A stretch of 870 nt of DNA from Escherichia coli (GTDB taxonomy: Bacteria; Pseudomonadota; Gammaproteobacteria; Enterobacterales; Enterobacteriaceae): assembly GCF_003334815.1 (NCBI RefSeq), contig NZ_QOWO01000114.1; one strand, 5' to 3'. Shown piece after piece: positions 1 through 54 of the stretch. How positions within the stretch are numbered: position 1 is the first letter of the stretch; every line of letters starts with the position of its first letter. The notes under the pieces were generated by a model. The model worked only from the letters and a program-made list of their open reading frames with translations. It was not told the DNA's origin and did not search any database. The translations under genes and the position numbers were made by a program.

Positions 1-26
1 TGTAGATTCAATTGGTCAACGCAACA
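1..26. repeat. Left terminal inverted repeat (IRL) of IS30
   Basis: Seen in sequence: the 5' terminus TGTAGATTCAATTGGTCAACGCAACA is the IS30 left end as I recall it. The right-end partner (ending ...GATTGAATCTACA in the reference) is outside the window, so the inverted-repeat relationship cannot be shown here. The 26-bp extent is taken from the literature, not measured. Confidence 0.8.
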
Positions 27-49
27 GTTATGTGAAAACATGGGGTTGC

Positions 50-54
50 GGAGG
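50..54 (+). promoter_or_regulatory. Shine-Dalgarno / ribosome-binding site for the transposase gene
   Basis: Seen in sequence: GGAGG at 50-54, 8 nt upstream of the ATG at 63 (spacer TTTTTTGA). An in-frame TGA at 60-62 closes the frame immediately upstream, so ATG 63 is the first possible start. Confidence 0.65.

Follow-up and report, generated by a model that had tools for sequence, protein, structure and literature searches.

The left end of the insertion sequence IS30 very probably carries parts of two different promoters for the transposase gene within its first 62 nucleotides. In the 870-nt stretch of Escherichia coli DNA analyzed here (the window), nt 1-62 comprise the left terminal inverted repeat (IRL) and a short leader, and we put at roughly 85% the probability of a reading in which this interval holds both a poor native σ70 promoter of the extended -10 type, with its +1 at G48, and the -10 half of a junction promoter, Pjunc, that would be completed only when the left end is joined to the right end of the element. 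The element, the weak native promoter and the junction promoter are all already known, the earliest descriptions dating from the 1980s.

The window corresponds to IS30 nt 1-870 and has 100% matches among the IS30 copies of many complete E. coli genomes, the element being present in 3,660 of 5,426 such genomes. It matches IS30A of K-12 MG1655 at 868 of 870 positions, and the two differences, at nt 217 and 843, both fall outside nt 1-62. These substitutions, G217A (Arg52His) and G843C (Val261Leu), set the window variant apart from K-12 IS30A, and the variant is a common one, with many 100% matches among complete genomes. As a full-length proxy we used the copy of E. coli ATCC 11775 (L001:1501-2721), which is identical to the window over nt 1-870, spans 1221 bp, and is flanked on either side by a GT 2-bp target duplication. 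The window starts at the IS tip, and target duplications were taken from other copies; elsewhere these are AC (K-12 IS30A and a derivative on plasmid pAA) or AT (a derivative in strain AG100).

The IRL occupies nt 1-26 of the top strand (TGTAGATTCAATTGGTCAACGCAACA) and pairs at 23 of 26 positions with the right terminal inverted repeat (IRR) of the identical full copy, the two forming imperfect 26-nt repeats (L001:1501-1526 and 2696-2721) that start TGTAGATTCAAT. The transposase reading frame begins at nt 63 on the + strand and stays open as far as the window reaches (nt 63-870), giving the first 269 codons of the 383-aa DDE transposase encoded by full copies, which RefSeq annotates as an IS30 transposase. 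A Shine-Dalgarno sequence, GGAGG, is read directly at nt 50-54 (+ strand), 8 nt 5' of the ATG. A comparison of the window with Rfam returned no match.

The native start was placed with the Cappable-seq table of K-12 transcription start sites (TSS) in U00096.2 coordinates (Ettwiller et al. 2016, PMC4782308), which lists a + strand TSS at 269812 with a relative read score (RRS) of 32.8 and an enrichment of 4.07. The table lists no other TSS from the IS tip to the ATG, and among the 81 TSS of that part of the table this one ranks fourth. The coordinate anchor is insI-1, given as 269827-270978 in the older coordinates of Table S1 of Kim et al. 2012; equating its ATG (window nt 63) with 269827 puts IS30 nt 1 at 269765 and, thus, the TSS at nt 48, the G from which the transposase mRNA would start with a 14-nt leader (+ strand). 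IS30A lies at 270541-271761 in NC_000913.3, and a coordinate offset of 776 nt uniquely puts seven of the eight TSS within the element on a pyrimidine-purine step. The mapping comes from one TSS data set in which reads were multi-mapped among the K-12 IS30 copies; since these copies share their sequence, multi-mapping leaves the position within the element unaffected. Promoter scores for nt 1-62 are rough, having been computed with an approximate σ70 matrix whose consensus-base frequencies follow the classical promoter compilations. The same matrix predicts internal starts at about nt 191 and 845, where Cappable-seq has TSS at nt 192 and 846, and this agreement validates the matrix and, with it, the coordinate transfer.

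The candidate elements of the native promoter that fit a start at nt 48 are an extended -10 on the + strand, consisting of TG (nt 33-34), one base, and AAACAT (nt 36-41), and a -35 inside the IRL (nt 12-18, + strand), either TTGGTC (nt 12-17, spacer of 18) or TGGTCA (nt 13-18, spacer of 17). Both the spacing to the TSS and conservation point to this -10. AAACAT ends 6 nt before nt 48, placing A37 at -11, T41 at -7, and T33 and G34 at -15 and -14, and neither IS30H (90% identical) nor an 81%-identical remnant in Enterobacter asburiae shows any change within nt 30-42. The pair TTGGTC-18-AAACAT is the top-scoring one in nt 1-62 and the seventh of 4,210 pairs on the + strand of the window. The candidate -35 sequences match the consensus at three of six (TTGGTC) and four of six (TGGTCA) positions, and 26% of random 62-mers equal or exceed the overall score of 4.9 bits (4.86 bits, the best of any pair in nt 1-62). 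A G14T change in the E. asburiae remnant makes nt 13-18 TTGTCA. The native promoter is best described as a poor one, with a -35 whose register is ambiguous, and transcription from it would begin at G48, directly ahead of the Shine-Dalgarno sequence and the ATG.

This assignment can be set beside the published IS30 promoter P30A (Dalrymple et al. 1984; Dalrymple & Arber 1985), which likewise is weak and has its -35 in the left inverted repeat and its -10 in a symmetrical sequence; in the passage of PMC9783932 that cites Dalrymple et al. 1984, the native promoter is described as having its -35 in the left repeat, with an internal symmetrical sequence supplying the -10. The start mapped by Cappable-seq to nt 48 agrees with the P30A region. 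What differs is that the assignment of TG-n-AAACAT and of +1 to nt 48 derives from the 2016 genome-wide data combined with a spacing argument. The activity of the native promoter is weak according to the literature, where an N-terminal transposase fragment is also reported to bind over the promoter region. Autorepression by the transposase is plausible in the light of these reports, because the -35 sits in the part of the IRL that is bound by the transposase N-terminal domain.

Two other accounts of native transposase expression were weighed. The preliminary description of this DNA had found only weak candidates upstream of the Shine-Dalgarno sequence, and this was right, since the built-in promoter scan of the whole window reported nothing at its threshold; the poor quality of the native promoter thus stands, and the hexamers that it proposed, together with the coordinates of one of them, do not. 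It had paired TTCAAT at nt 7-12 with TATGTG at nt 30-35 across a 17-bp spacer. TTCAAT is where it was said to be and each hexamer does match the consensus at three of six positions, but nt 30-35 read ATGTGA, TATGTG lies at nt 29-34, and the spacer is 16 bp. A native promoter made of this pair (nt 7-34, + strand), with a start at about nt 41, is extremely unlikely. Both hexamers are present, and their locations, TTCAAT in the IRL and TATGTG in the left arm of a symmetrical ATGT-N4-ACAT, are loosely compatible with the second-hand description of the native promoter; against this, the pair scores 0.05 bits on the approximate matrix, which is chance level, and TATGTG ends in G where T is nearly invariant in -10 sequences. 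At least one such pair of three-of-six hexamers with a spacing of 16-18 occurs in 93% of Markov-random 62-mers of the same composition; nt 1-62 contain nine of them against a null mean of 3.6, a number that 4% of random sequences reach. K-12 Cappable-seq data have no TSS at nt 40-43, where TATGTG would be expected to direct initiation, nor any other from the IS tip to nt 48, and the mapped K-12 start at nt 48 is 14 nt downstream of TATGTG, which contradicts the proposed pair as the transposase promoter by the very test that the preliminary description had set. Finally, T29 of TATGTG is C in both IS30H and the E. asburiae remnant. The score, the TSS data and the variation at nt 29 together rule against the pair, which we regard as a chance match.

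The second account holds that integrated copies depend for transposase expression mainly on read-in transcription from flanking genes rather than on an internal promoter. The poor sequence of the internal promoter speaks for it, as does an insI-1 TSS reported by Kim et al. 2012 that lies 184 nt upstream, in IS911A; that TSS, however, is based on two reads, from a data set restricted to uniquely mappable sequence. Within the element, Cappable-seq records at nt 48 an enriched 5'-triphosphate end that is stronger than most neighboring TSS, and read-in transcripts are predicted to form a stable hairpin (z about -3) at the left end. Read-in as the main source of transposase mRNA is consequently improbable, and we favor the native promoter with its start at G48.

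Weaker sense TSS are also listed by Cappable-seq (RRS 1.8-12) inside the transposase reading frame, at nt 102, 147, 192, 832 and 846 of the + strand, and further + strand TSS lie past the window, at IS30 nt 981, 1110, 1128 and 1209. Two promoters predicted by the matrix coincide with members of this set, TTCAAA(155)-18-TATGTT(179) with the TSS at nt 192 and TTGTAG(811)-16-TACGAT(833) with that at nt 846. An antisense promoter, on the - strand, has been reported at about nt 730-760.

The other promoter half in the window is TAGATT at nt 3-8 (+ strand), which the preliminary description had correctly located and singled out as -10-like. With A at position 2, T at position 6 and a four-of-six match to the consensus, this hexamer is unremarkable alone, and it becomes significant only when joined with the right end, which is outside the window. 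The preliminary description had also placed a TTGACA near the right terminus of IS30 and had argued that an IRR-2bp-IRL junction would bring the two into promoter spacing, in keeping with a strong junction promoter reported for (IS30)2; all of this is borne out. The IRR of the identical copy (TGTTGCATTGACAGATTGAATCTACA) contains a perfect TTGACA (IS30 nt 1203-1208) that is 13 nt away from the tip, and at a 2-bp junction the distance to TAGATT is 13 + 2 + 2, or exactly 17 bp. The resulting TTGACA-17-TAGATT scores 14.2 bits whichever two bases make up the spacer, with a null p of about 3e-4 among random sequences of the same length. In IS30 circles and dimers the IRR and IRL do abut through 2 bp (PMC9333248), and the part of that source that deals with the IRL-IRR junction describes a strong Pjunc there, which it attributes to Dalrymple 1987.

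TAGATT could instead be terminal sequence with a role only in transposase cleavage and strand transfer, its likeness to a -10 being a coincidence. Four-of-six hexamers are common, the IS tip is constrained by the chemistry of transposition, and several members of the IS30 family have no junction-spanning promoter; moreover, recognition and cleavage by the transposase also restrict the terminal bases, whose conservation alone is therefore no argument for promoter function. Such a coincidence would nevertheless have to produce, at the documented 2-bp junction, a spacing of exactly 17 bp from a perfect TTGACA. In addition, one of the three mismatches between IRL and IRR, at inverted repeat position 14, is what perfects the IRR hexamer, TTGACA as opposed to TTGACC on the bottom strand of the IRL. 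Together with the strong Pjunc described at the IS30 junction in the literature, these features make the absence of any promoter role for TAGATT a poor bet. We thus favor TTGACA and TAGATT, on the geometry of the junction, as the probable hexamers of Pjunc.

According to this assignment, TAGATT in an integrated copy would be without a -35 partner. Copy-out would yield a minicircle or an (IS30)2 dimer in which the IRR is joined to the IRL via 2 bp, and the junction would set the IRR TTGACA 17 bp upstream of TAGATT, creating a strong, transient Pjunc with a predicted start at about nt 15. Pjunc would then raise transposase synthesis for as long as the junction persists, up to its destruction by integration. 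The predicted promoter is the same as the known Pjunc of (IS30)2 dimers and minicircles in element, sequence and arrangement, with a -35 in the IRR, a -10 in the IRL, a 2-bp spacer and an orientation toward ORF-A; it differs in being only potential here, the window being a single left end. A review counts IS30 among the elements with transient junction promoters. The IS911 pjunc, the IS2 Pjunc and the IS21 junction promoter are likewise composed of an outward -35 in the IRR and an inward -10 in the IRL that reach 17-bp spacing in the circle or dimer junction only, and they too are strong, transient and destroyed by integration; the IS2 junction promoter, like that of IS30, needs a 17-bp spacer. 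The elements differ in the bases between their ends (1 bp, mandatory, in IS2; typically 3 bp in IS911; 2 bp in IS30). IS2 and IS911 also belong to another transposase family (the IS3 family) and rely on programmed frameshifting; IS30 has a single reading frame.

Eight more distant members of the IS30 family had their ends delimited from plasmids and were scored for junction-spanning promoters, the tips of their inverted repeats being uncertain by 1-2 nt. A strong junction promoter is predicted for IS30H, with the same hexamers as in IS30, and for ISPpu17, with TTGAAT-17-TAGAAT (p at or below 0.001), and a weaker one for an ISAba125-like element. In ISApl1, whose circle spacer has been reported as 2 bp, TTGACA-17-TACAAT is obtained only with assumed tips 2 nt outside the repeat cores. 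No junction promoter is predicted for ISCfr4, IS1394, or the Roseomonas and P. fragi elements. These predictions suggest that a split promoter is recurrent in the IS30 family without being universal. Hybrid outward promoters that pair an IS30-family IRR -35 with a flanking -10, such as those of ISAba125 upstream of blaNDM-1 or aphA6, resemble Pjunc in using the outward -35 located close to the right tip (TTGACA in IS30, TTGAAT in ISAba125) and differ from it in that their -10 comes from target DNA rather than from the IRL, and in driving neighboring genes rather than the transposase.

Natural junctions were sought as IRR-N(0-6)-IRL. None was present in 5,426 complete E. coli genomes and 72,556 plasmids, nor in the GTDB representative genomes, metagenome contigs and viral contigs; K-12, from which the TSS data come, likewise has no junction. 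This absence fits the reported instability of the junction (PMC9333248), and with no junction found, the window copy has Pjunc only as a potential promoter. A few records do have the two ends close by; these are internally deleted IS30 derivatives and were rejected as junctions.

Two of these derivatives have features of their own. In E. coli K-12 AG100, pgpC/yfhB is interrupted by a 126-bp mini-IS30 (L002:1605-1730) in which IS30 nt 1-90 are joined to nt 1184-1221 at a 2-nt microhomology, with an AT duplication; the TTGACA of its IRR lies 18 bp from a perfect flanking TATAAT, an arrangement that by sequence is a classic hybrid outward promoter. A 555-bp internally deleted IS30 on plasmid pAA of E. 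coli 042 (L003:601-1155) lies in an IS3-family element resembling IS911, and its insertion point is the dinucleotide that IS30A occupies in K-12. In ATCC 11775 the same site holds a full IS30 in the opposite orientation (the flanks in L001 and L004 are reverse complements, with an AC/GT duplication). These insertions suggest that IS911-type elements contain a hot spot in which IS30 inserts recurrently.

The bottom strand of the IRL carries what appears to be an outward -35, TTGACC (nt 14-19, - strand; GGTCAA on the top strand), 13 nt from the left tip and mirroring the TTGACA of the IRR. In a junction modelled with the ends of the ATCC 11775 copy it forms, on the opposite strand, TTGACC-17-TAGATT, which scores 12.9 bits and reads into the right end, and by its sequence the IRL bottom strand could also provide flanking DNA with an outward -35. 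Transcripts of the whole left end are predicted to fold into a long hairpin over nt 6-64 of the window (z about -3, with one of 200 shuffles as stable), with stems at nt 6-11/59-64, 14-17/53-56, 20-25/45-50 and 28-33/38-43. The 3' arm of this hairpin covers the Shine-Dalgarno sequence and the AUG, and since the TSS at nt 48 lies within that arm, native mRNA would be made without the 5' arm. The inner IRL sequence GCAAC pairs with GTTGC just upstream of the start codon and Shine-Dalgarno region, a pairing also seen, with different flanking sequence, in IS1394, ISCfr4 and a Methylophaga element. Fold-back inhibition, in which the hairpin would hide the Shine-Dalgarno sequence and AUG only in read-in transcripts, was considered and rejected, as predicted accessibility hardly differs among transcripts starting outside the element, at nt 15 and at nt 48. 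It is a speculative and rather unlikely idea that the junction promoter is two-faced and that the GCAAC/GTTGC repeat acts as a regulatory hairpin, or as a second transposase operator, that distinguishes native transcripts (from nt 48) from junction or read-in transcripts. We found no description of a two-faced junction or of the GCAAC/GTTGC repeat in the accessible literature.

The preliminary description is thus half right, its junction part being confirmed at the level of sequence and its native hexamers being wrong. Little of what is reported here is new, and its value lies in the annotation of known regulatory features of a known element. In annotating IS30, TAGATT at the tip should be entered as one half of a split promoter that would be silent in integrated copies, and the native promoter should be entered at TG-n-AAACAT, with its +1 at nt 48, and not at TTCAAT/TATGTG. 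How IS30 insertions can activate neighboring genes would, in turn, be explained by the outward-facing hexamers, TTGACA at the right end and TTGACC on the left-end bottom strand.
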